A stretch of DNA of 63,501 nt, filler included, from Kipferlia bialata (taxonomy: Eukaryota), in assembly GCA_003568945.1 (NCBI GenBank). It is 3 parts of 3 records of this genome, joined end to end, with 100 filler letters (N's around TTAATTAATTAA, not from the genome) between each part and the next. Parts side by side here need not be neighbours in the genome. Positions count along the whole stretch, not along the records: positions 21,230 to 42,351 come from BDIP01000339.1; 2 more parts are not named here. The stretch is one strand, 5' to 3'. Positions 9,601-50,701 of the stretch are shown one piece after another (the first letter of the stretch is position 1; every line of letters starts with the position of its first letter). Under the pieces are notes generated by a model. It saw only the letters and a program-made list of their open reading frames with translations. It was not told where the DNA came from and ran no database searches. Position numbers and translations under genes: made by a program.

Positions 9601-12600
9601 TATGGAGCAGGGTCTGAACCATGGCAAGTTCCTGGACAATGAACAACATGTATATCTATATATACTAGTCCATGAATACTTGCGTGTAGTCCAATCTATT
9701 ACTATATGCTAACTATAGGGAGCAGGGCCTCAACCATGGTAAGTTCCTGGGCAATGTGTGATACTTGTTCCATAAACCCTTGTACTATATATAAGGATAT
9801 ATATATATGCGTATATATGGGCGTATATATACTAATGCTAGGGAGCAGGGCCTTAATCATGGCAAGTTCCTGGGCAATATATGTTTTGTGTATATGTAGA
9901 AATGTAGATTGCATATAGTTCATTGTATGTAGTATAGTTCATTCAATTATATGCTAACTATAGGGAGCAGGGTCTGAACCATGGCAAGTTCCTGGGCAAG
10001 GCCAGGGTATACGTCACAGATGAGGCCCACATGCATGCCATGGTGAACCTACTCTCACTAGGTATTTTCTATTACATACAATTAGAGAGAGTGATGGATT
10101 TAGAGACAAAGAGGGAAACTCATGCGTGCTATGGTCGACCTATCTGTCTCCGGGTATATAGTAACTATGATATATTTGATATGCATATTTATATAGTGGC
10201 ACGGATACTGCTACTGACCCTTAGGCGGTCTCCCCGGCGTCCTCCTTGACCGTACTCTAATCGGTGAGCTCAACTGGCTCTCCTCCGTTGCATTCCAGCT
10301 GTTTGAGATCCCACACGCACCTGAGCACGCTAGGTATGGTAGTGCTATGCTGATAGAGATATACTTATGTTTATGCTACGCATGGTATTGTTCTATGTAT
10401 AGACTTACCATTGGCGGTTTGTGTGGGTGTTTCTCTTTCTCTCTCTCTGTGTATATAGTTATGTGTGTCTATGTATATTATATTTTTTTGATACATAATA
10501 TTCTATCCTCAAGTGGTTTGAGCGCTTGTTCACTCATCTCCTCTCTCTCAATGAATTGTCTCTTATCCCAGGTGGTTTGTGCGTGTGTTCCTCTCCTGTG
10601 GTTCCTCTGCCAACCCATTTGAAATGACAGCTGAGGACAACGTACTGCCAACGGACAGATACGAGGCGTGTATTGTATTCTATTTGTATACATGTTGATA
10701 TATCCACTAATAGCTAGGTCCTGATTGACGGTCTTCTCCTGCCACCCCTGAGGGAACTGTCACTGAGAGTACTGAGAGACAGGACAACACACAAGTATGT
10801 ACATGTATGCATAATAGAGGATCTAACGATGGGTTGTATGTATTTGCTCACCCCAGGGGTCATGCTGAGCTGATTGATAACTGATGTCATTTATCAATTC
10901 ACATTAATAGTACCTAGTGTGCACATAGTATGCAGTGAACAGTGTATAATACTCACGTCAGGGGCCATGCTGAGTTGATGGCTGTGATTGGTGTGTTCAG
11001 ACACGGAGACAGGACACCTAAGCAGGTATATATAGTTGTGTAATCAGTGTATATTTATATATATATATATATATATAGTCAGCATGCGTGATGTAATGAA
11101 GGGGTATCAGACACGGAGACAGAACACCGAAGCATATATGTGTGTATATAGTCAATATATATATAGTCAGTATCTCTCTCTCTCTTGGTCTACACCCTTT
11201 TACCATCCAGAAGTACAAGGTGTCTATCAAGGACCCAGCAGTCATACAGGAGATGTTCCCAGGTACTACTATAGCTATCTTTCAGTTAATTCTCTATATG
11301 TGTCTACATGTATATTTATACAATATTTCGTATTCATATGTCCACCGGTAGATTGTCTCTCTCTCTCTCCGCCTAGCCCTTATTTCCAGGTGTTGACCTT
11401 GATGCTGACTTTGAGGATCTGACTCTCAAGCCGCACTCGAAGCCCAAGGACATACCCACTTGTGAGAGGTGATTACAGTTGTATATATGGATAGATATAT
11501 TTTGATATATATAGTCACAGTATACTCCAAGCCCAAGGACATACCCACATGTGAGAGGTGATTGCATTAGTGTTAATATCAATACTAGGCCTGGTATTTT
11601 GTAGTGTATTTATGTGTTAATATATATACTCTGTATCAGTCACAGTATCCACTCCAAGCCCAAGGACATACCTACTTGTGAGAGGTGACTGCATTAGTGT
11701 TAATACATTATGATTACTATGTATTAGTGTTAGTATCAATATTCTGTATCACTCTTAAGCCACACTCCAAGCCGAAGGACATACCCACTTGTGAGAGGTG
11801 ATGGAGTTAGTAATGTTAATGCCTAATGATTTCATTAATAATACATTATCAGTACTAAGCCTAGTATTATGAATTAGTGTTAATAGCAATATTATGTATC
11901 AGTCACAGTATCCACTCCAAGCCCAAGGACATACCCACATGCGAGAGGTATTTAGTTGTATCTGTACATATATACACGTGACATGTGTAATGTATACAAT
12001 TGACTCCCAGGTTCCAGAGAGTGTTGAACCAGAACGCTGAGAGTCTGGCATCCAGTGAGAAGGTATCTCTACACTCACACTTCTAACAGTGCCAAAATAA
12101 TCACATATGAATTTGAGAGAGATAGCTTACCCTATATGCACATGCCAGCTTTGTGTAGTATCCTATGTCTTACATCCAGGAGAGAGAGAAGCTCCGTTTC
12201 TACGCCGACGTCATCATGAAGCCAATAGACAGCCTCAAGATTCAGGTACATAAGTTGTTAACCCAATTGAAGATGAGATGGCTGTAAACTCCTTCTCATT
12301 CCTAATCTGCCTTCTCCATCACAACTATAAGGATTGCTCTATGTTTGTATTACCTCACCTCCCAGGTCAAGGCCAGGAAGGGCACCCTGAGGCACGGCAT
12401 ACAGGTACAGTCTCTCTCTCTCTCTCTTCCACCACGTTTATGTGTGTGTAGCAATGTGTACTATTTATAATACATAGTTGTACACTAACCCTCCTCTTTC
12501 TCTCTCTACCCCTATGTATTTGTGTGGGTCTATGGGTGTGTGTCTTATATCTATTCTAACACCCAGATGATCATCAAGTTCGGTGGCATGCTGACCTCTC

Positions 12601-21407: not shown

Positions 21408-21787
21408 CTGGCCAGACCTTTGGTCTCCTGTCTCTGGTGGGTGTATGATTATATAGTTCACAATATATACTGTCGTAGTGCATGTTATAGAATATATACC
21501 ACATATAGTGTATTTACCATTTGTTGCAGTTTCAAATTGCAATAAATATTGTAATTTACAACTTGCAAATTACATTATTCTATGAGTATACGGGTATTAT
21601 GCTTCCAGTAGTATGGCACCGATGCACTCTCTTCTTGTCACAAGAAGTTCTTGTGAATGAGTATCTGGTTTACTGTATATTAGATATATATATATATATA
21701 TACGTATATATGTGTGCATATATGTCTCTCTGCTGTATACTCATAATCTTACCCGTGGACTACTTAACACCCAGTTCATAGACGCGT

Positions 21788-22741
21788 ATGACGCCTAAAC
21801 AGTGGTATGACCGATACGTTGTGGGAGTTTCTGAGATCACAGACCCATATCAGCAGCGAATAAGCCCTCAAGTGGTTGCCTTGGGACACAATGAGGCTCT
21901 ATTGACATACGAATTGTACATGCGGGGACGTGTGTGGAAACTGCTGACACTCAACGATGACCACACTGTGAGAGAGACCACACTCAACACCCCGGCTTAT
22001 GTCTCAGAACTCGTAGGTGTATCGATTGTCAGAGTGCAAGATAGTGTGGTTGTCTGTGGGGCCAAAAGGTCAAACGGTAGTGCTGAGTTTTCAATGGCCA
22101 GATTCGACTGTGAACATAGATCCTGGGAAAGCCTCGATCACCTTCCTGGAGACAAACCCTTCACGAGACTCTCTCCCATGTTGTCTACCTTAGGAGATTC
22201 TTCACTTATGCTCGGAGGTGGATGGGATACTGATGGTGAGGCTGCCACCAATGTGTGGGTGTGGAGTGCTAGTACTTGCACTTGGACCAAAGGTGAAGAC
22301 CTACCAGTGATTGCTTTTGACAAGGATTCAGCAGTGTCTACCCGCAATGAATGTATCTTTCCAGGGAGAGATGGCTTTAGCTTGTCTCTCTGCGACAACT
22401 ATCTCAGACAAGAAGGGGAGAGATGGACATTCGTCTCAACATATGCGGTTGAGCCTACGGAAGTATGTGCCAGTTTCGGATCCATGTATCAGGTTCTACT
22501 GCTTTGCCGCCGAGGTAGATGGTTGGGAGAGGGACATATGACCACCAGTGTGTGGTTGTACGACGTTGTGTATGGGGATCTGACCCCCTGTGAATCCCTT
22601 CCTGTTATAGACAGCAGCCAACGAAGTATATCTGCCACTATGATCAACCCCACTACTGCTATTGTGGTCGGCAACAAGGACATGGTTGTGGTGGATGTGC
22701 TGCCAAAGGTACCGGGTAGTAACGTATACCACGAGATATGA
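21788..22741 (+). CDS. Kelch/beta-propeller-like protein, paralog 1 (intronless CDS, 317 aa)
   Basis: Clean long ORF; Kelch-like segment LSTLGDSSLMLGGGWD...VWVWSASTCTWTKGEDLP; shares ends with neighbours (QWYdRxVV..EIT, NEALLTY, DDHTV, MINPTTA.VVG..D.VVVDV.P). Confidence 0.8.
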   Translation: MTPKQWYDRYVVGVSEITDPYQQRISPQVVALGHNEALLTYELYMRGRVWKLLTLNDDHTVRETTLNTPAYVSELVGVSIVRVQDSVVVCGAKRSNGSAEFSMARFDCEHRSWESLDHLPGDKPFTRLSPMLSTLGDSSLMLGGGWDTDGEAATNVWVWSASTCTWTKGEDLPVIAFDKDSAVSTRNECIFPGRDGFSLSLCDNYLRQEGERWTFVSTYAVEPTEVCASFGSMYQVLLLCRRGRWLGEGHMTTSVWLYDVVYGDLTPCESLPVIDSSQRSISATMINPTTAIVVGNKDMVVVDVLPKVPGSNVYHEI

Positions 22742-23783
22742 GTCGACATTATGACACAATGGTTGCAGACTCTATGTACATGACGAAATATATTCTACCA
22801 GTTACTGGTCCAGTATCAAGATACGTAGTGACTGCTGCAAAAGAGGTTACACTTATGGTTACCCTTCTAAGGCTCACCATAGCTACCGGCAATTAGTCCT
22901 TGGGGCACTGAAGTGGCTGCCATCCAAACAAACACTGCTCCAGATCGAGCCAACGCCGTTGGCCCAACGGGGGGAAATACTTTCTCAAAAAAGTGGAGAA
23001 ATATGCAGCCCTTCTGCATGTGTCACGTCCAAGAGAACTGCTGTCTAGTGTAGACATATCTACCTCTGATCTCTAGATAGTAATGTAAAATACTACTCAG
23101 TGAGTAGTACTCACGTATATGTGTAATTGTCAGTGGAACTATCAGCGTGTGTTCTTGCCCAACACACAAGGGATGTAGCCTACACCGTGTAGGCTCTGAC
23201 GGTCTATTGTTGTGAAAAGCCATAGATCTCTGGGAACATAGTGCTACAATAGGTCAGTGATTCACTGACTCAGTGAATACTGGCCGATAACTCTGACCCA
23301 AGGCGACCGAATTTACTTAGTTCTAGAACTCTTGTCTTGCTATTGTCTTGCTATTGTCATCATTTCCGCTCTCCTCCAGAGTTATCTAATAGAAATTTTC
23401 TTACTGTCAAACACTCGAGAGTCACTACGAGTATTTGATGGGCTAATTAATAATTGACGTGAATGAGACTACATCTGTCACTCTAACTTGAGTGTAATAC
23501 TTGCTCTAGTCTTTCCACAGTTTCTGTAGTATCAGTGATGACTCATTGTCCATAGTATGGACCATCGTACCTACTGAGGGATTTGGCTCACTAAAGTGGG
23601 GGTTCTAACTCAAATGTGTCAACAATATCCAAGGAGACTGCTGCCTCGTGCCAGACTCTGGCCCAGAGTGTGCCTCTGCACCCAACTCATGTGACAAACG
23701 GTAGGACAATAGTGAGTCCATAATTATTCCAGATAGAACATCAGTGCAGCTCCCATATGGGTACCAGTTGAATCGTTCAACCC

Positions 23784-24740
23784 TCATTCCTCATTGTATA
23801 TGCTGGGACCAAGCACCTCTGGCGGCACATCCACCACAACAGTGTCACTGCCGCCAACCAGAAGAGCAGTAGTGGGGTTGATCATAATAGCAGACACGCT
23901 GCCTCTTACGCTGTGTGTGGGAGGAAGGGGGGCACAGGGTGTAGCGTCACCGGAGACTATGTCGTACATACAGAAACATGTGCAGACCTCCCATTGTATC
24001 ATTCTCTGCTCTGTGTCACACAGCAGGATACGCTGGTATGTGGATCCTAGACTGGCCTGTACCCTATAGGGCTCAGGAACAGATGTTGAGACAGAGGTCC
24101 ACCTATCTTCTTCTAGTATGGGAGTCCCGTTGTGTAGTGAGAAGCTGACCCCCTCCTTTCCTGGGAAGATGCACCTATCATGGGAAGATACAGCTGTGTC
24201 CCCTTTATGGGACATGCGGTGTAGGTCTTCACACTCAGTCCACTCGCCAGAATTCCATATCCATGTTCCGTAAGCTCCCCTGGAAGTCTTACGTCCCAAG
24301 TGAAGAACGAAGGAAGAATCCCCTACGGCGCACAAGTTGGGATACAGATCTGGGAAAGGTTTCTCTCCAACAACGTGGTCTAGGCTTTCCCACGTTCTGC
24401 AATCACAGTTGAATTTGGCCATGGAAAACTCTCCACGATACCCTCTCTTCACTCCACAGGCAAATACACTGTCCCCCAGCTTTACAATCGAAGGGTAGTC
24501 GAGGTTTGAGACAAATGTAGGTACGTCAAGTGTGGTCTCGCTGACGGTGTGGTCATCATGTAGAGTCAGGACCTTCCAGAGACGTAACCTCTCTGGAAGA
24601 GATCCAGTGTATACATAGTAAGTCAAAAGGGCCTCGTTGTGTCCTATAGCAACCATGTCAGTGTCAAACCTCTCCTCACTGAGCTCTGTGATCTCTGGAA
24701 GTGCTATGACACATCGCTCATACCACTGCTTGAGAGGCAT
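23784..24740 (-). CDS. Kelch/beta-propeller-like protein, paralog 2 (intronless CDS, 318 aa)
   Basis: Colinear with paralog 1 along its whole length (MPLKQWYERCV...GHNEALLTY...IMINPTTALLVGGSDTVVVDVPPEVLGPSIYNEE). Confidence 0.8.
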   Translation of the reverse strand: MPLKQWYERCVIALPEITELSEERFDTDMVAIGHNEALLTYYVYTGSLPERLRLWKVLTLHDDHTVSETTLDVPTFVSNLDYPSIVKLGDSVFACGVKRGYRGEFSMAKFNCDCRTWESLDHVVGEKPFPDLYPNLCAVGDSSFVLHLGRKTSRGAYGTWIWNSGEWTECEDLHRMSHKGDTAVSSHDRCIFPGKEGVSFSLHNGTPILEEDRWTSVSTSVPEPYRVQASLGSTYQRILLCDTEQRMIQWEVCTCFCMYDIVSGDATPCAPLPPTHSVRGSVSAIMINPTTALLVGGSDTVVVDVPPEVLGPSIYNEE

Positions 24741-25389
24741 ATTGGTGTATATACAGGGGCCTGGTATCCTTGTCTACAAGTAAGGTAATGGAAGAAGAAG
24801 GCTCAGATGATGATTGAACAGTGGCAGTCTTCTTTCACTCTACTGTAATTAGTAGGTTTCTAGGACGTCTGAAACCATCAAATACCTGGAGAATACAGCT
24901 GCACACTGCATAGTGTACAGTAGTCTACAGTTTGAAGAACAAAACTTGTACGGTACAGACTGTACAATAGCAAGTGTCCTTGACTCAAGTACCTTGAGAG
25001 TATGTGAAGGTTAAGTCTTGGGTCACCACTTTCTGTTATCCCAATTTGATGTAGTAACTACACCATGCTTTTGTAATTCAGTTAATCTCTCTAATTACCT
25101 CAGTATTGCTATGTGTGACACTTACAAATTGAACGTTCCAAATATTAAAATGATATATAGTATCGTAGAACTGTGCAAAACCGCGCGTATTTGGATCCCA
25201 CACTATTCCTAACTCTCTTCCCCCTACACTATTGTTCACACATATCATCACCCTTACAATTAGAGATCCACTTTGTGAGAGTGAATGAGTATGACTTCAT
25301 ATAGTTTACAGTGTACACTTGTACTATATTCATGTTTACTCATCAGTAAGTCTTCCTCTTGCCAAGACTCTTGAAGAGTCTTGGTTCAA

Positions 25390-26605
25390 TCACTCATTGT
25401 ATATGCTAGAACCTAGCACCTCTGGCAGCACATCCACCACAACTGTGTCCTTGTAACCAACCACAATAGCAGTTGTAGGGTTGATCATGGTAGCACAGAC
25501 AGGGCGTTCCAGGGCACACCGTACAGGTAGAGACTCACATGGTTCCAACTCCCTGGAGACTACATCATATATATACGCCCCGGTATCAGCTACACCATTA
25601 CCAGAATAGTGCAATTTCAAGAGTATACGACTGTACGAATCTCCGATGGCTGCACTAACCCGACGGGGCTCAGCAACCGAGGTTGAGTTATACGTCCAGC
25701 ACTCTCTCGTTGACACTAGGGAACCACCTATGTCGGTGAACGTAACTCCACGCGACCCTGGAAATGACACGTTATCTCCGTATGAAATAGTGGCATCACA
25801 TGCAGTACGGTGCCTACATATGGGCTCCCACTCAGTGCACTGCATGGTATCAGCATGCCATAAGTATGCATGTGCACAAGAGTATGGGTACCTGCCAGAA
25901 TACACACCACCCGCCAAAAGGAAACGAGATGGTCCAGTATCTCCTATAGCGCAGAGAGAGGGACGCTTCATTGGCTGAAGGTTGATACTGGGCGCTGGAA
26001 TGGTCTCGTCCCAGGCTTGGGCCTCAATACTGTACCGGCCGAAGAAGAGCTCTTCTGGCAGCCCACTCGCTTGGAAGTCACCCGTAGACACCCCACATGC
26101 TATAACATAGTTCCCCACTCTGGCTATTGTCGGCCTCTCTGCTAAACCTAGTACTTTTGGCACAATTAGTGGCTTCTGTGTCACTGTGTGATCGTCATTG
26201 AGAGCTAATAGTCTCCAGACCTAGTAATTAGAACTGAGTGCTAAGGACACGTATGGCGACGCTATTGCACCCACCTACATATGGTTGGGAGGGCACAGCT
26301 TATGTATTTCATCAACTTACTGGCTCTGTAACCACTTCTTACCTGGTCCTCCCCCGCAGTCTGGTATGTAAGCATTGCTTCATTGTTATCCAGGGGGACG
26401 ACCTGGGGAAACAACCTCTCCTCTGCCTCCTCTGTTGTTAGTATAGAACACTAATCGGATTACTGTCATTTACTTGTCCAATTAGAAAGACCCTAACTGA
26501 TCCTGAGAGGAATTCAATTCTCTTATCGTTACCTAGGACTAACCCCTCACCTGTGATCTCTGGCAGAGCCACTACACACCGGTCGTACCACTGCTCCAAG
26601 GGCAT
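25390..26605 (-). CDS. Kelch/beta-propeller-like protein, paralog 3 (3 exons: 26605-26551, 26431-26343, 26220-25390; ~324 aa)
   Basis: Two GT-AG introns with CTAAY-type branch motifs restore a colinear protein: MPLEQWYDRCVVALPEIT|EEAEERLFPQVVPLDNNEAMLTYQTAGEDQ|VWRLLALNDDHTVTQK...MINPTTAIVVGYKDTVVVDVLPEVLGSSIYNE. Confidence 0.85.
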
Positions 26606-35800: not shown

Positions 35801-38294
35801 GCACTTTGTATCTCTCTGGATCTCTCTGTGGTATGCCTGTATATAGTACTAAAAATACCTATAGTATATTATTATTTATTAATAATTATATTTAGTATAT
35901 ATAATATATATACTGCTAACCTCAGGCCCTGTGGGACCCCATATGTGCATTTATTCAAGGAATCAGTAATTATATATTCTGCAACTACGATTATGTGTGT
36001 GTGATTACTACTGACTCTAGGCCCTGTGGGACCCCAGTCAGCAGATGAGCTACACAGTGGGGCCGTTGCCAACGGTGGTGGCAGAGGTTCGATTGGTCTA
36101 TCTCTCTCTCTCGACATATGAAGTATTTCATTGGATCCTTTCCTGTTTTTATGCTCTCTATGTACTGACCTTCTGACCCCAGGTCCCAACCTCCACCGAG
36201 ATGTTTGGCAACTCATGCAGTGATATATATCACACATCTGAATTATGTATTGAGAGAGTATAGAACCAGTCTCATTCCCTTAGGTCCCCACCTCCACCGA
36301 GATGTTTGGCAACTCGTGTTTCGAACAGAACGGCATCTACTTTGGAGAGCTATGCGAGGCACTAAAGCAAGGTTAGACTGTCCATGAGTGTATCACTTCA
36401 TGCAGGTGTTCCCTTGGTCATCATAATTCTCTCTCTCTTAACACTTAGGCGTAGGCTTTACTGTGAATCCTGACATACTCTACATGCAGGGTGTCCTCTC
36501 TCTCATTCTCTCTCTCTCCCTCCCTCTCTCTCTGCAGACTTTTGGAAATACAAACCCACAGGTGTCGGTTTTACAGCTGACCCCGACATCCCCTATATGC
36601 AGGGTGTCCCCCTCGCTGTGCTATGCGGCACACAACACTTCACAGTAGATAGTCAGATCACACATGTGCCAGGTATATGTATATCTACCCTAATAGGGTT
36701 ACAGTGTATTATACTATTGTGAATATGTATGCCCGCAGCACTTCACAGTGGATAGCCAGATCACACATGTACCAGGTGCAAAATGTCATTATGTGTATGC
36801 ATAGACTTTGTATTCATGGGTATCATTATATGATATATTTACAGGTGTCATTATCCTTCTCACCTAGGTTGGTGTGCCGACCCCAGTTCCTCTGAGGGTC
36901 AGTTTGGAGACTGTGACTCCGATAGAGTATTCTATGCCGGACTGGCTTCTTCTATTACAGGGTGGGTACTCTCTGTATGTGATGTAAATATGTATATATA
37001 TGTTATACGTTCATTTAGATTGCTATGCCGGACTGGCATCATCCATCACAGGGTGAGTATCAAGTGGGTACATCGTGGCTATATCGTTAACTGTTCTTGA
37101 ATAGCTGGAGCGAAGTATATACACGTTCAGTAAGTAAGCCAGAGTAATATAGTTATCAGGAAGTCCACGAGTATTTGAGTCAGACAATGCATAAATACCA
37201 TGTATGAATATATAGTATTGTTGTGTTCTGACGTCAGCGAGCCCACCGTGTGCCCCTATGAGTCTGTGGACATTATGGAGAAAAGCCATACAGTCTCTAT
37301 CAGACACAGGGTCAGCAGTCAGGTATACATAGGGTCATATATAGTATATGTCAGTGTATGTATGTATAGTAGCATGAGTAGAATGGTGTATACAGTATCA
37401 ATCAGACACAGGGTCAGCAGTCAGGTATGTGTTGCACTGTATGATGGAGATATATATTGATATACACACATATTTCTATTTGAGAACCGTACTGTGTCTA
37501 GCAGGCACAGGGTCAGCAGTCAGGTATAGCTACTCTCTTATTGTTTACAACCAATATATACTAGGTATACATGACACTCTCTATGGTTGATATATGCGCA
37601 CATGGAAGTCCATCAGAGACATATATATAAGGAAGTTACAGTCTCAACAATTACAACACCCATTATTGCTCACCGTCAGGTCTCAGAGGTCACCTTCCAC
37701 AACCTAGAGCCAGTTGCTCTCCTTGGTGATGTTGTGTTGTTGCTAGTCTCTCTCTTTGGGTTCCAGACCCTGTTGGAGAGTGTCGCATCAGCAGTCAGGA
37801 GGTATATAATGTATTCCCTTTCTATTCATATGTATCTTGCCTCTCTTTGGGTTCCTGACACTGTTGGAGAGTGTGGCGTCGGCTGTCAGGAGGTATACCT
37901 AGTGACCCAATTTTGAGTTGATGCCAGCTGCATATCTAGAAATTGGGCACTAATCATTCTTATATGTGTAGGTATAATACATTCATGGCACTTTTACTTA
38001 TGTGTTGTCTGAGAGTGGCATCAGCAGTCAGGAGGTATACATAATATTACCTTTCTATTCGTATATATCTTACGCTACTCTTGTTCTTCTGCCCTGGTGA
38101 CTAACCCGACTAGATTGATGAAGATTAGAAAGGCCTCCCGACGCAAGAGGAGAGGGGGAGAGAGGGAGAGAAACAGAGCAAGGGAGGAGGCAACATATCC
38201 AGCAGAGAGAGTGCCTAGCCATATGATGGGTAGTGTGACTATGACCCCTAACCCCATGATGGGAGGGACAGCCGTTGGGCAGACAGGTGTATAA
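29821..38294 (+). CDS. Uncharacterised membrane protein, multi-exon, 5'-partial: hydrophobic helices flanking a large Cys-containing extracytoplasmic loop, basic C-tail
   Basis: Exons give AMLSTFSPKLFDGC..., TM ANVVCALTLCVTLLGLLAVWLY, RGTIMGGCVTSVLYVIAAFTAVWTLYV, a long loop, then EPVALLGDVVLLLVSLFGFQTLLESVASAVRRLMKIRKASRRKRR...GQTGV* (TAA 38292-38294). Not every exon phase was verified. Confidence 0.65.
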
Positions 38295-38434
38295 TAGAGT
38301 TTCTGTGTACTTCCCAGCTCTTCGATGTTTTCAACATATTTGTGGTCTCGCTTTAAGCGAGTCGCTTACATTGTGGCCAGGACGCAGTAGCTATGGGCTT
38401 GTATGGTAGGAGTGTGAGTGTCATTGTGATGAAG

Positions 38435-38605
38435 TGGGAGCACAAGGAATCGAACCTCGATCCCTTTCCCTGGGTCAATCGTCCCCGTTTCCAACACTCC
38501 ACCATCAACTTTGTACATGGTAAGTATATACAAAGCCGCAGGCGTGGGTTCGAACCGCGGGCGTTTGTCCCACAGAAAGGCGCTTTACCATTAAGCTATA
38601 CCCCC
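38435..38605 (-). tRNA. tRNA-like gene with ~100-nt structured insertion in the anticodon arm (tRNA-His GUG if spliced at 37/38; otherwise a tRNA-scaffolded ncRNA)
   Basis: Minus strand: GGGGGTA-TA-GCTTAATGGTAAAGC-G-CCTTT-CTGTGG...insert...G-AAAGG-GAT-CGAGGTTCGATTCCTTG-TGCTCCC-A. Acceptor stem (GGGGGTA/TGCTCCC), D arm, anticodon stem (CCTTT/AAAGG) and T arm all pair; A and B boxes intact. Variable loop only 3 nt and no nearby T4 terminator. Confidence 0.65.
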
Positions 38606-42474: not shown

Positions 42475-45400
42475 TGGGGTGGGTGGGTCTTCATGGTCAT
42501 GTCAGAACCGGACTCAAGCAAGGTACAAGCTATATATATTTACACTACACTATATACTATATACTACACTATTTACTATTTACTATATACTATACTATTT
42601 GCTATTTACTATACTATATACTCATGGGGTGGGTGGTCTTCATGGTCATGTCAGACCCTGACTCGGGCGAGGTGGGGGTATATTGATATACTATATACTA
42701 TATATACTACTATACTTTACATACTCCTGGGAAGGTTGGTGTTTGATATACTCCGTCTCTATCTCGCTCACTACGAGCCCCAGTGGATACATCTGTCTCT
42801 ATTCCTCTATACATACCTATTCTCTCTCTCACCCCAGGTGATGCTGAAGGAGTGGGACGAGAACAACCTGGAGTGGGACCTCGTTGACGATACCCTTCTG
42901 TCCGATGATCGGTTCACAGACCTGGGGGGGTCTGGTGAGTAGTATTTGTAGTATGGCAGTGTCGGTATCACCAGGAGACACGAACAGTGGAGAGATGTGG
43001 TGATTCCCCCTCACCCCCTATCCTCACCCCCAGTGGCTATTGGCTGGCCCGGGTGGTACGGCTACTACGCCTTTACCGCGTACTACCTGGACTACCTGAT
43101 GATCGCTGCATACAACACATGGCCAGGTAGGAACCATGTGTGTATCAGTATCTATACTGATACTAATACGATTACCTGGGCCAATTACTGGGACTACTAC
43201 ACACACACCTCTGACGCTAGGCAAGACCACCCCTGACACTTCTGTTCCCGACGGATTCGTGTGTGCGTCCATGAAGCCTAGGATATCACTCGGAGGTACA
43301 GCCTACTCCATAGCGGCCATAGTATTTACAAATGCACAAGATATTCGTATCGTCCCTAACTACACCCTTCTCTCACCTACAGGATCCTATCTGGCCCTCA
43401 CTGGCGGAGAGGACAGTTACGCCTATGTCATCGACCTCAGTGACACAGGTAGGGATATAGCTCTCTCTGTTGCTACACCGTCCTCTACACCTTCCTCTAC
43501 CACTTTCCTTACCTCCAGAGGCTGAGTGGCAGCGTCTCTACTGCTCCACAGGAACCGTGACAGACGTTGTGGTGTACGAATTGGATCTGGACCAGTGGCC
43601 GAAGTACAACATTGGGCTGGGCCTGGTGTCAGATGACAGTCCAGACATGAACGGGGATATCACAGGTATGTATATGTGTATGTGTGTGCATGTATATACG
43701 GTGATATCATAGGTGCCGCCACATCATCCATCCATATACAATAGAGCATGTATACATATATATATCTCACTCGCAGGCACCATCACGATGTACGAGTACT
43801 CCAAGGAGTCAACTCCTTTGTATATATACATCTATCTATATATGTACAGATATATGATATGTAGGTAGGCATGCATTCCTAACCCCCAGGCACCATCACC
43901 ATGTATGAGTACTCCAAGGAGTCAGCCACCCACGACGATGGGTTTGTCTACAAGTCAACTGTCTATGGCCCTGCAGACGCCTTCCCTAACGGGGTATGTA
44001 CCCCCCTCTCACTCTCTCTTTAGTCTTCCACCCCTTTCTCACTCAGGATCAGACGTCTGGAATAGCTGCCTGTGAGTTTGTTGACATGAAGAATGAGTAC
44101 ATGACATGTACCTACGCAGATGGACAGAACGGACCAGCCCTCACGTGAGTACTCTCCTTCGTTCTCTCCCCCCTCCTCTCTCTCTTGCTTATTCTCAGAT
44201 ACCACTATATATATATGTGTATATATATATATGCTTACTCCCAGATACCACTAGTACTATGATATATATATATATATATGCTTACTCCCAGATACCACTA
44301 TGAGGATGCCAACGGAGACTATGAGGCAGACGATACGGGAGGCCAGTCATACGTCCTGCAGCATGTGGACTACCCCTTCAGTGTACGTATATATATCTCT
44401 CTCATACTACCCTTCGCCGCTCTTTTCTTATAGGTACTCTACATATACTTGCGGTATACGTGGATGGCCAGACCACTTTTGATTAGATATCTCCCTCTCT
44501 TTCTATCTTGCTCCTACGCTACCCCCTATTCCCTGTGCTCTTAGTCAGGTTACTTGTACATACTCACTATGTCTTATACCCATCTAATGCCCAACTTATA
44601 CCCCCCTTATACCCAACTTATACCCCCGTTATACCCACCTTATGCCCAGGGTACCCAGGATACCTTTGCCGGAGATGTGGCGAGACTCCATGAGTACACG
44701 TTTGTCGCAGATAGGTACCCTTCCCTCCCCCATATTGTTGCTGTATCTATATGTGTACACTACCCCCACTACGTACCCCTTACCTATATATGTATACATA
44801 CTACTACTATATAGGTAGGTCCACCTCACCCCAGCACAGCCCTCGTTCCTGGCTCCACTACCGCTGCTGGAGGTATGTGTATGTGTGGTAGGTGTATAGT
44901 CGCTATAGTATTGATGCTGTAACTGACATACTAGGTGTGTATGTCATGCGTGATGTCTATGCAGACGAGGCCACTCTCAGTGTGACTGAGTACACTCTGA
45001 CTGAGGAGGAGGGCACTCTCTCTCTCTCTCTCCTCACTGACAAGAGCGACTCCTCTTCCACCCTAACCACACCCCTCCTCGATGGCCAGCTCTGGGTCGA
45101 GGTGTACGACTCACAGGGCACCCTCTCCTCAACTGTGGCCACCTACACATTCGACGAGACTGCCTACACATACACCTTCGACGTGACTATGCCTGTGGTG
45201 GCTGGCACCGCTGAGGTCAAGGTGGTACTGGCCGAGTGGTCGATGCTCGATACCAAGCTAGAGTTTGATGTCAAGATTGACGTCCTGTTCACATCTACAG
45301 ACATTTCTAGTCTGACCGGTACCTCTACTTGTGGCACTGAGACACTCACCTATTCCCTGCTGGGCGATGAGGGTGAGGGTGATGGCCCTGTACCATGGAC

Positions 45401-47886
45401 TGAGGACCTTGCTAGTGACATGACTGCAGTGTGGGACGATGCTGCTGAGACCACCAACACAGTCACATACACTGACGGAGTGTACTCTGTGGCGGTGGTA
45501 TACCCTAGTGGAGCAGGTACCTACACCCTCTCCATCAGTGTCATGGGGTCAGTGCTGCTAGGCACCAGGGAGGTCACGGTGGCACCCACCTTCTCCGCTT
45601 CCCTCTCCGTTGTCACTCTGTTGCCTGCACAGTCTCTCTATGGAGCCGCTACCTCGTACCAACTAGTACCTAGGGACGAGTGTGGTCTGCAGATGGACGA
45701 GACGGAGACGAGTGTTGCCTTTGCTCTTGGAGACGCCCCTCTCTCCACTCCTACCATACTGGATACAGCCAACAACTGGACGGTCTCTGTCACATCTGAC
45801 ATCACCTCCGAGGGTCTCTGGACCTTCACAGGCTATGCTGCAGACGGTGTGACTGAGGTGGACTCTACAGTGCTGGAGGTGGCACATGAGTACGTCACGG
45901 AGGACAGTGTCTCTAGGGGTGTCTCCAAGGGCCTCTCCTCTCTGACAGGCCTACCCTCTGCTACTGACACTGCCTTCTCTATTGTCTACACGGTGCGTGA
46001 CCTCTATGGTGAGGCCTTCCTCAGTGATGTCGCCTCTCTGCTCTGGGACGGGACTGCTATCACTACATGCACGGTAGACACTGTGACAGGTGCTGTGACA
46101 TGCACTGGCACCAGTGACGTGCATCCGGAGCAGCTGACAGTCGAGGTTGCCCTACCATCGGGTGAGGTTGTGGTATCCGATGATGTTGACACTGAGTACG
46201 GTCTCACCTCCTCCCTCTCCCTCTCCGTCTCCACCCCTTGTGACACCGAGTCTGCTGAGTTCACACTACTCAGAGACGGCACCCCCTATGTTACTAGCCT
46301 TCTCTCTGTCCTCTCTGCCTCATGGGATGACTCTGAGGACCTTACTACTGTGTCAAAGGGTACCGGTGATGGTGTCTACTACCTGGCTGTTGGAGCGAGA
46401 GAGGTTGGGACCCACACCCTGACCGTGTATCTAGACGGGGATGTCCTTTGTTCAGATACCGTTGACATCGCCCAGGTTGCAGCAGGGACAGACGGTGGCT
46501 CAGTCGTGGTGGCCGAGGGAGACGACCCAACTGTAGGGGACACCTTGGTCGTCCAGGTAAGATGCTCTCCCCCACTATCAGGCAACAGTTGCTCCTCAGT
46601 ACACCTCTCTCCACTACATGTTTCCCTCTGTGTCAGAGTATCTGCGCTTACCTTAGCTGTTGCTCTTGGATACATGTGGTGATCCCATGGATGCCGTAGA
46701 GGATATCCCAGCCACACTCAGAGTGAGTGGCTCCTATATGTATATATACTGTGCTCTGATAGCTACAGAGTGCTTGGCTCCTATAGGGCTTTGACAGTAA
46801 GATGCTTGCGTGATATACTCACTGTTGCCTTACCCTAGGTTCGCCGTTCCACTACATTCGAGGTGGTGGAGACAGTTGACTTCGTGTCCACCGTCTCTGA
46901 CGATGCTGCAAAGGTACACACCAAGGAGTCTGTGACCAGCACCAAGTACGCCGAGTCATGTTAGTTTACGAATCCCCAGTCCACTCTCACCCCCCAGCTA
47001 TAACTTCTACGCCACACCATCCGCCTTCACCAGTGAGGGTGTGTACTCACTCGAGGTTCTCTTTGGCGAGAGCGACGTAGCCGTACTCTCTTCCTCCCTC
47101 TCGGTGTTCACTGGATATGCTTCAGTGGGTGATGTCTCCGTCGGTGTCTCTGGGACCCTATCCACCCTCTCAGGCGTGCCATCCTCTGGCTACACTGTTG
47201 GTGACCCATACTCCCTGACGCTGGTACTCACCGACCTAGAGGGCACTGCTCTATCCCAGAATCTGTCCCCTACCTGTACCATGGCGGGTTATGCCATGGA
47301 TCCAGTGTACGATGCAGCTACCTCTGTCTACACCCTCTCTGGCCTAGTACCCGAGGTTGAGGACGCCGCGTCCCTTGACGTTGTGTGCAGTGTAGACGGG
47401 GTGGAGATGGTACGTGCAGTGTGTTCCCTCGACCAGGGTGGACTACCCTTCTGGGCATACCTTCTCATTGGAGGTGTGACCCTCTGTCTCATTGGCCTAG
47501 GCGTGTACTACTTGTGGACACACCAGACTAAGGACACGTGCAGTGGGATGGACAGACACGCCAAGGTACAGGACTCCAAGGTGGACGATGGACTGGTTGG
47601 TGTGGGTGGTACTGTTGCTGTAGAGCCAGTCATGGCCGTTCCCGTCATGCCAGTCCAGACAATTCCGGTAGGGTTTGTGCCTATCGAACTCATTCAGCCC
47701 CAGGTGGAGGAGGCAGGTGAGGAGGATGGTCTTCCCAACCCCTCTGTGCCTGTCAACCCCGACTCTGAGTCCTCGGTAGGGTTTGAGGGCGAGATTGACT
47801 GTGACTTCCATGTTGTAGTGGAGGACGGACAGGGGGAGAGAGAGGGAGAGGACGAGGCCCTTATGCCACTGGATTGCAAGGTGTGA
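42475..47886 (+). CDS. Large type I membrane/surface protein: beta-rich N-terminal region, Thr/Ser/Val/Asp-rich Ig/filamin-like repeats, single C-terminal TM, acidic tail; 5'-partial
   Basis: Short exons at 42838-44870, then long exons ~44935-46556 and ~46997-47886 with repeated W-D...G.Y.v.....aGt.tL.v motifs and vRDxyG/pRDeCG; TM LPFWAYLLIGGVTLCLIGLGVYYLW; stop at 47884-47886. Confidence 0.8.
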
Positions 47887-49131: not shown

Positions 49132-50701
49132 TTACTCCACAGACCCAGGGAGAGACACCTCCCGTGCTGGAGCCTCCATCGAGACCTCCTCCTGCCCCTG
49201 CTCCGCCTCCACACTGGCAGTATCAGTGGGGTTGGCCTCGAGGTCGTCGGCCTTGGACTCAACGGAGCTGCGTCTGAGTCTCCTGGGCCTGACTGCATCC
49301 ATGAAGGGAGCCACACCCACCACAGCGTCACCCACAGTGGGTGAGAGGTAGGTGGCAGCTACCACGGCAACAGGGATAACAGCCACAGCAGCTACCAGCA
49401 CAAGGCCCCAGATACTGCCACCCTCGACGGTAACACTGCCTGAGGTAGGAGTAAGAGAGACAGTGTGCATTAGAGCTTTGGAAGAGAGGTGAAGTAATGG
49501 CGTTCAGAGAGAGAGGTGATGAAGTTGGCTCCACTCTACCTGTGGCAAAGGCGACGCCGTCAATGGCAGCAGAGAGAGAGACGTCTCCCTTGGTAGAGAG
49601 TGACGCTGCAGCCTGGTACACAGAGGCAGCAGCCACCCAGGCAGCAGGGTGGGCGACACCACCCACTGATAGCACCACGTCACTGGATGCCTCTATCGTG
49701 TTGCTGTACTGGTCGACAGGGGACATTGAGACGGTGAGGGTGTCGCCCTTGTTGGCGACGGCCTGGTGCGACATGGAAGAGAGAGAGGGGTAGACAGGGC
49801 CGGCGACAATGGTGACACTTCCCGTCTTGAACTCTGCTCCTGAAGGTGAGGCAGGAGACCGATAGACCGATAGATGGATAGATAGCTGACAGAGGAGAAG
49901 GGTAAAGAGGGCTACAACCAGAGAGAGAAAGAGAGAGTACCTGACACTCCATCATAGATGACTATAGGCTGCTCTCCAGCTGTGGTGAGGCCTGTAAGGT
50001 CAGGACACTCCCACCCCATAACAAAGGAGCCTGGTATAAGGGACTGGAGACAGAGAGAGGACGGTTACTATGACAGGGGAGGAAGATAGGAGGGTATAGG
50101 TGGGGGAAAGTCCCCTATTGCTAGAGAGTGCCAACCACACGTACATGGTGCGGGTGCTGTGTCGTTTGGGAGGCCGATGCTGAAGGAGTAAGGGTCCCTG
50201 TGGTCTGGGATGATGAGCACAGTCTCGGGCGAGTAAGGACTGAACGAGACAGAGACGGCATCCCCGGCAACAGTGGCTGAGGTTTGGATAACGGAGGTTG
50301 CGGCATCAGGGACACCGCACTGGGTCTGCACAGTGGCCTGGGTTAGGTATATACTAGGATACATAAGTATATAGAGAGCCATATATATAGTATCAGGGAC
50401 ACCACACTGGGTCTGCACAGTGGCCTGGGTTAGGGGTATGAGTATCTAGTACATATATATATGCTAGATACACAAATATATAGAGAGCCACATATAGAGT
50501 ATGAGGGACACCGCACTGGGTCTGGACGGTGGCCTTGGCTAAGGAGTATAGATATAGATATACAGATCATATACGGGTATATATATAGAGAGAGCCATAT
50601 ATATTGTATGAGGCACACCACACTGGGTCTGGACGGTGGCCTGGGGTAATGCGGTAGGGGGGGGGGGAGGGAGAGAGAGAGAGACAGTGGGGATTGCATG
50701 C

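Follow-up and report, generated by a model that had tools for sequence, protein, structure and literature searches.

How an intron-rich fornicate recognizes the 5′ ends of its introns is the question raised by one locus in Kipferlia bialata. The genome was reported to contain 124,912 GU-AG introns (PMC5874029). Hudson et al. list U1A, U1C, Luc7, Prp39 and 9 Sm/LSm proteins for this organism, with no U1-70K among the entries given there, and the snRNA search they mention, described as preliminary ('data not shown'), reported no candidates, all five snRNAs being missed. That search may simply have failed, and the presence of U1A, U1C, Luc7, Prp39 and Sm/LSm proteins suggests that an Sm-type U1 has so far been overlooked. 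Within the 63,501-nucleotide stretch of DNA analysed here (the window, filler included), a 171-nt element on the minus strand (38435..38605) offers one concrete candidate for 5′-splice-site recognition in an organism without reported snRNAs or U1-70K: it consists of a tRNA body and a rod-shaped insert with a U1-like apical loop. The preliminary description left two readings of it, a tRNA-His(GUG) with a long hairpin intron, or a Pol III non-coding RNA displaying an anti-5′-splice-site loop on a tRNA scaffold.

A tRNA body carrying a rod-shaped insert

The element was delimited from its sequence, its predicted fold and ARAGORN, and the complete acceptor, D and T arms claimed for it are all present. 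The 5′ strand of the acceptor stem (nt 1–7, 38599..38605; this and all other parts of the element lie on the minus strand) is preceded by T, hence G-1 is not encoded. It forms 7 bp, including G4.U69 and U6.G67, with the 3′ strand at 38435..38442, where the discriminator A73 is present and CCA is not encoded. U8, A9 and the D arm, which contains the Pol III A-box, occupy 38582..38598, the D stem having 4 bp and its loop A14, A15, G18 and G19. The T arm proper (38443..38459), which carries the second B-box, has 5 bp and the loop UUCGAUU. The 5′ strand of the anticodon stem with C32, U33 and G37 (38570..38580) encloses the nominal anticodon GUG (38573-38571), all but G34 being paired into the rod; G38, the 3′ strand of the anticodon stem and the 3-nt variable region GAT follow at 38460..38468. 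Between these strands, at position 37/38, both ARAGORN and the fold place a 101-nt insert (38469..38569), which with the cloverleaf fixed is predicted to form one imperfect rod continuous with the anticodon stem.

The predicted fold of the whole element has an energy of -77.4 kcal/mol (z -5.81), equalled by 0/200 shuffles. The insert alone folds with z -3.13 on the minus strand vs -0.16 on the plus strand. The fold contains nine G.U pairs and four single mismatches, each of the latter being G.G or A.A and none A.C. A CCAC/GTGG helix proposed earlier is not among its pairs, the fold instead joining CGCC with a GGUG/GUGG stretch. We conclude that the element is real, single-copy and tRNA-shaped, and that it is probably under selection as an RNA. 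A dead chimera, in which a tRNA was altered by duplication or insertion and the rod is a decaying inverted repeat, seems improbable: the first 71 nt are laid out like a degenerate tRNA, a nearby terminator is absent and relatives were not found, but all arms are intact, the G.U pairs and the lack of A.C mismatches speak against decay, and neutral decay would not favour the folding of one strand.

The ARAGORN search with introns that had been suggested did return a gene, the only one in the window, as tRNA-His(GUG) with a 101-nt intron; such a call is weak taken alone, as 2/30 dinucleotide-shuffled windows also yielded one. With the intron option off, 0 genes were called in the window. Rfam gave 0 matches across the window at gathering score, and local comparison reached chance level only (tRNA, E 4.9; mascRNA, E 5.7). 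The D arm is generic, being found among 120 sampled viral loci in 69 tRNA-Met and 6 tRNA-His genes, and thus does not give the isotype.

Pol III signals

The element contains both boxes of a putative type 2 Pol III promoter. With consensus sequences taken from PMC7954030, an A-box is found at 38598 and B-boxes at 38556 (10/11 to RGTTCRANTCC) and 38456 (11/11). The former B-box lies within the insert as a second T-loop motif (38546..38556, nt 50–60), at a distance from the A-box like that in intronless tRNAs: T54 of this internal motif is at nt 52, as in 12/93 reference tRNAs, 68 others having it at 53. The window matches the pattern GGTTCRANYCC at only three places, and the element accounts for two of these; a B-box-like motif arose in 31/200,000 insert shuffles, in 6 of them near the actual position. 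The internal B-box may be a retained promoter element or the remnant of a tRNA duplication. No oligo-T terminator is close, the first T4 lying 1151 nt downstream, so that the 3′ end would need an RNase Z cut or another signal.

Comparison with a spliced tRNA-His

The element shares with eukaryotic intron-containing pre-tRNAs (TSEN substrates and tricRNA hosts) a hairpin insert at position 37/38 and an intact mature domain. It could therefore be a working tRNA-His(GUG) whose 101-nt intron is removed by a relaxed or divergent TSEN, the loop being incidental or active only in the excised intron. The ARAGORN call at the canonical position, the cloverleaf with conserved D and T bases, and C32, U33, GUG, G37 and A73 all fit this reading. 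The missing encoded G-1 is no objection, since G-1 of eukaryotic tRNA-His is added after transcription according to PMC10275265. Neither exon has a second copy in the DNA sequencing run, so this could be the only His gene. The available supplements of PMC5304391 yielded no metamonad tRNA-His sequence.

The predicted insert nevertheless departs from such introns at two features reported to matter for their cleavage. The proximal anticodon–intron pair is described as conserved and critical (PMC10485636), and for Drosophila an invariant 3-nt bulge is reported at the 3′ cut site, with tighter helices lowering splicing (bioRxiv 10.1101/497545). In the predicted fold of the element, C at position 32 stands opposite A at intron position -3, leaving the anticodon–intron pair absent, and the 3′ cut site is zipped (C32-G38 probability 1.0, U33-G(-1) 0.99), with no 3-nt bulge; opening it would cost 7.6 kcal/mol. 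As modelled, then, the element lacks the pair and the bulge of eukaryotic tRNA introns, and this together with the zipped site was counted in favour of an unspliced RNA. The predicted spliced product would also be unusual, with 70 nt, a C32-G38 pair and a 3-nt variable region, the last being found in 0/93 parsed phage tRNAs that share the D arm (108 distinct, 15 unparsed), a baseline of bacterial type. Eukaryotic tRNA introns are generally short as summarized in PMC10275265, against 101 nt here, and the internal B-box is a further difference from known pre-tRNAs. The tRNA-His half of the preliminary description keeps its ARAGORN call and is weakened at the 3′ site, the anticodon–intron pair and the bulge; we regard it as unlikely. 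Should the element be merely a tRNA-His, it would as a TSEN substrate be an exception to the usual rule.

The apical loop and local 5′ splice sites

In the predicted fold the rod ends in an apical hairpin (38506..38538) whose 13 bp include three G.U pairs and whose loop has 7 nt. The 9-mer ATACTTACC, corresponding to the 5′ end of U1, lies at 38519..38527 (nt 79–87 of the predicted RNA), and its ACTTACC (38525-38519) forms the loop. As had been proposed, this sequence is unpaired at the apex: all seven bases of ACUUACC are predicted to be single-stranded with probability 1.0, the preceding AU being paired. The bases flanking the core, AU before and C after, match U1 as well. The core itself, ACUUAC, is the donor-pairing segment of U1 and is described as kept even where donors differ (bioRxiv 10.1101/2022.06.08.495308; for Giardia, PMC3510501). 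Shuffling the insert produced ATACTTACC anywhere within it in 119/200,000 cases, and ACTTACC no more than 5 nt from its actual place in 309/200,000; the motif was picked after the fact, and these figures overstate the surprise, by our estimate perhaps 10-50 fold.

Pairing was examined with 12 local donors from two genes, 4 taken from joints in RNA contigs and 8 obtained by mapping the K. bialata protein P0001 onto the window. The loop could pair with each at 4 to 7 of 7 positions, counting G.U. It ranks 15th among 16,384 7-mers for donor pairing, a rank that mostly reflects the invariant G|GT. GTAAGT occurs in 0/12 of these donors, and none contains the perfect complement of the loop. The best 7-bp duplex of loop and donor has -7.4 kcal/mol, so that little more than -7 kcal/mol could be gained by a helix formed within a closed 7-nt loop. 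A is found at -2 in 11/12 donors; the base 3′ of the loop is A and is itself paired in the fold, so pairing cannot extend to donor position -2.

The same 12 introns (36673-38113 and 51538-53488) have loose donors, five beginning GTGGG and none GTAAGT, with G at -1 in all. Branch point and acceptor are fused in them, the likely branch A lying 6-11 nt from the intron end. A test for specific pairing of the 5′ with the 3′ end of each K. bialata intron led to its rejection (permutation p 0.91, 12 introns). Exon ends followed by GT are repeated several times in tandem across the window (for example at 11386-11949, 50271-50651 and 59155-59555), separated by (TA)n- and (GA)n-rich spacers; decoy donors, duplicated mini-exons and alternative exons are all conceivable explanations of these repeated segments.

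The window is enriched in GGTAAGT (13 observed vs 4.6 expected), which makes the capture of a donor-like piece easier. The enrichment lends itself to a reading in which the element is a non-decoding tRNA-like RNA with another job, such as a protein-binding rod or a small-RNA precursor, and the U1-like bases arose by chance or were captured as a piece of U1 or of a donor in inverted orientation. Such an RNA would account for the internal B-box, for a fold confined to one strand and for the departure from what TSEN needs, and it has a precedent in trypanosome sRNA76, as described in PMC2695483. It would, however, leave unexplained that the seven unpaired bases are the exact donor-pairing span, and we consider it rather unlikely.

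Relation to the U1 family

Both U1 (Rfam; Giardia U1, PMC3510501) and the element carry the donor-pairing ACUUAC core, complementary to 5′ splice sites and here to local donors. In U1, however, the pairing bases stand free at the 5′ end of a cloverleaf that also has an Sm site, whereas in the predicted RNA they lie in an internal hairpin loop carried by a tRNA body. No Sm site of the form RAT(3-6)G or ATTT[GT]TG occurs in the element and about 330 nt downstream, and no U1-70K or U1A loop sequence (TGCAC, GATCAC or AWCACGAA) in the element; one loose U1A-like match lies 12 nt past its 3′ end. Rfam U1 gave no match to E 10. Membership in the U1 family was rejected on these grounds, namely the lack of an Sm site, of a four-way junction with U1A and U1-70K loops and of an Rfam match. 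The element may still act like the 5′ end of U1, judging from its sequence.

A linear arrangement was also considered, in which a tRNA-derived Pol III leader, comprising the first 78 nt, is cleaved off, and a divergent U1 starts at ATACTTACC and refolds with the downstream flank. The 9-mer does start 8 nt past a tRNA-length unit with A- and B-boxes. The 3′ arm of the rod can form 15 bp with the flank at 38400-38417 (minus strand, 19-36 nt past the element), a better pairing than with its own 5′ arm, and the helix with the flank can close three hairpins. Equally good pairing with the rod arm was nonetheless found in 73/4,036 control windows, the fold z is merely -1.0 to -2.5, an Sm site and a U1A loop are lacking, and a full tRNA cloverleaf would be purposeless. 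Refolding from the U1 motif onward did not give a U1 cloverleaf with an Sm site. To this arrangement we give very little credence.

Nor is it at all probable that the insert is a spliceosomal intron, which would run from 38573 to 38470 (GT...AG, 104 nt), use GTG of the anticodon as its donor and leave a 67-nt tRNA-like product with no anticodon. It would start with GTGGG, as do 5/12 local donors, and end in the fused branch-point/acceptor pattern matched by 12/12 local introns, and by its intronic donor hexamer it ranks among the best 575 of 8,298 GT sites. With the exon side included, however, this donor scores below all 12 real donors and is equalled by 5,208/8,298 GT sites; the acceptor is among the best 812 of 8,438 only, below 10/12 real ones. 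Both ends are paired in the rod, and removal would leave an anticodon loop of 4 nt, not 7.

Copy number, genomic setting and relatives

The DNA run contains one contig over the element, at a depth of 445.7, and nothing else that matches at 85% likeness; at this sensitivity the element is single-copy. Its being a high-copy degenerate SINE, raised as one of the outcomes that would refute the preliminary description, is contradicted by the absence of many dispersed copies from the same run. None of the assembled contigs of a second run, presumed to be RNA, spans the element, and these contigs are uninformative on its expression. The element sits between two converging genes, a spliced plus-strand transcript ending at 38305 and a minus-strand open frame, read from the sequence alone, stopping at about 39015.

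Copies in relatives, with covariation or a conserved loop, had been proposed as a check, and scans of viral and metagenomic sequences gave 0 homologs. The D arm plus anticodon pattern had 0 matches in metagenomes. An architecture pattern (A-box, ACTTACC, T loop) had 5 matches in viral sequences, all of them tandem tRNA pairs, and 28 in metagenomes, of which 24 were called as ordinary tRNAs and 4 gave no call; the motif lay in a rod loop in none of them. Giardia GlsR28 and U1 showed no likeness to the element by eye, and GGTTCGA was missing from the Giardia supplement searched.

Two groups of unusual tRNA-like genes came to light in these scans. Ga0315293_10025498 (L133:301-427 and flanks) holds a tRNA-like gene, apparently Arg(CCT) by eye, with a two-hairpin insert in its anticodon loop; ARAGORN does not call it with introns off, and, its ACTTACC being paired, it was not taken for a homolog. 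Eight viral loci (L035, L051, L052, L056, L079, L120, L011 and L065) form a phage tRNA-like family with one common body and an enlarged or odd C-rich anticodon loop, 6/8 being called as Gly or Asp with 5-6-nt 'introns'.

Comparison with other tRNA-like and guide RNAs

The resemblance to the tRNA-like domain of tmRNA that had been pointed out comes down to the 3-nt GAT linker. In tmRNA too a long helix replaces the anticodon arm, and a 3-nt linker precedes the T arm. Nothing beyond this supports the likeness: the element has a true D stem, its G.U pair is at 4:69 and not 3:70, and it has no tag frame. With neither an ARAGORN tmRNA call nor an Rfam match, tmRNA was rejected.

In sRNA76 with 7SL, and in mascRNA/menRNA, a tRNA fold likewise probably serves processing or protein binding and not decoding. 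We know of no long anticodon-arm rod or antisense loop in sRNA76 or mascRNA/menRNA, and the Rfam match of the element to mascRNA is, as noted, at chance level. Precedents for separate parts of the arrangement do exist. The box C/D guide in an archaeal tRNA-Trp intron places a guide sequence inside a tRNA intron, and the branch-point stem-loop of U2 is a spliceosomal RNA segment that presents its pairing bases in a loop. The element differs from the archaeal guide in having no C/D-box family match, and its partner would be a 5′ splice site. A literature search, in which subscription journals were thinly covered, found no tRNA-scaffolded anti-donor RNA and no K. bialata tRNA-like RNAs.

Proposed function

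Our preferred reading, held tentatively and resting on the modelled fold, is that the locus encodes an RNA of ~170 nt that stays unspliced and whose loop would pair with spliceosomal introns at their 5′ ends, either replacing U1 or assisting it. Pol III would transcribe it from the A-box and the internal B-box, and its ends would be trimmed by RNase P and RNase Z, given the tRNA-like folding of the acceptor, D and T arms. The splicing endonuclease would leave the RNA whole, its cut sites being zipped, and the rod would hold ACUUACC out to pair with donor positions -1 to +6.

Several observations were counted for this anti-donor reading: the loop is exactly the donor-pairing span and fully unpaired, the insert folds on a single strand, and the host combines its large number of introns with no snRNA candidates and no U1-70K. 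Counted against it were the lack of a homolog, which leaves no covariation or loop conservation to draw on; the lack of an Sm, U1A or U1-70K site; an anticodon loop that still reads C32-U33-GUG-G37, with A73; and the lack of a nearby Pol III terminator. The Pol III anti-5′-splice-site RNA of the preliminary description thus retains circumstantial support, from the internal B-box, the single copy and a host lacking reported snRNAs and U1-70K.

As it stands, the element represents a variant form of tRNA-like RNA; a role of the loop in splicing would place it in a category of its own. In that case one tRNA body would provide a spliceosomal guide with its promoter, its processing signal and its scaffold. 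A bolder and unlikely extension is that K. bialata replaced the capped, Sm-bound U1 with a Pol III-transcribed, tRNA-scaffolded rod, and that other snRNA modules in such lineages may likewise ride on tRNA-His-like scaffolds; if true, this would explain why family models miss snRNAs despite 124,912 introns.

Other features of the window

Three related intronless open frames of about 280-330 aa lie at 21782-26220, one of them inverted relative to the others; the first, used as query in a protein search, had no homolog at E 0.001. Long Ser/Thr/Val-rich open frames at 44892-47886, with a hydrophobic, membrane-like end, may belong to one large surface protein. A nine-exon gene of the actin family (ARP-like) at 51436-53614 corresponds to the K. 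bialata protein P0001, one exon being 100% identical.
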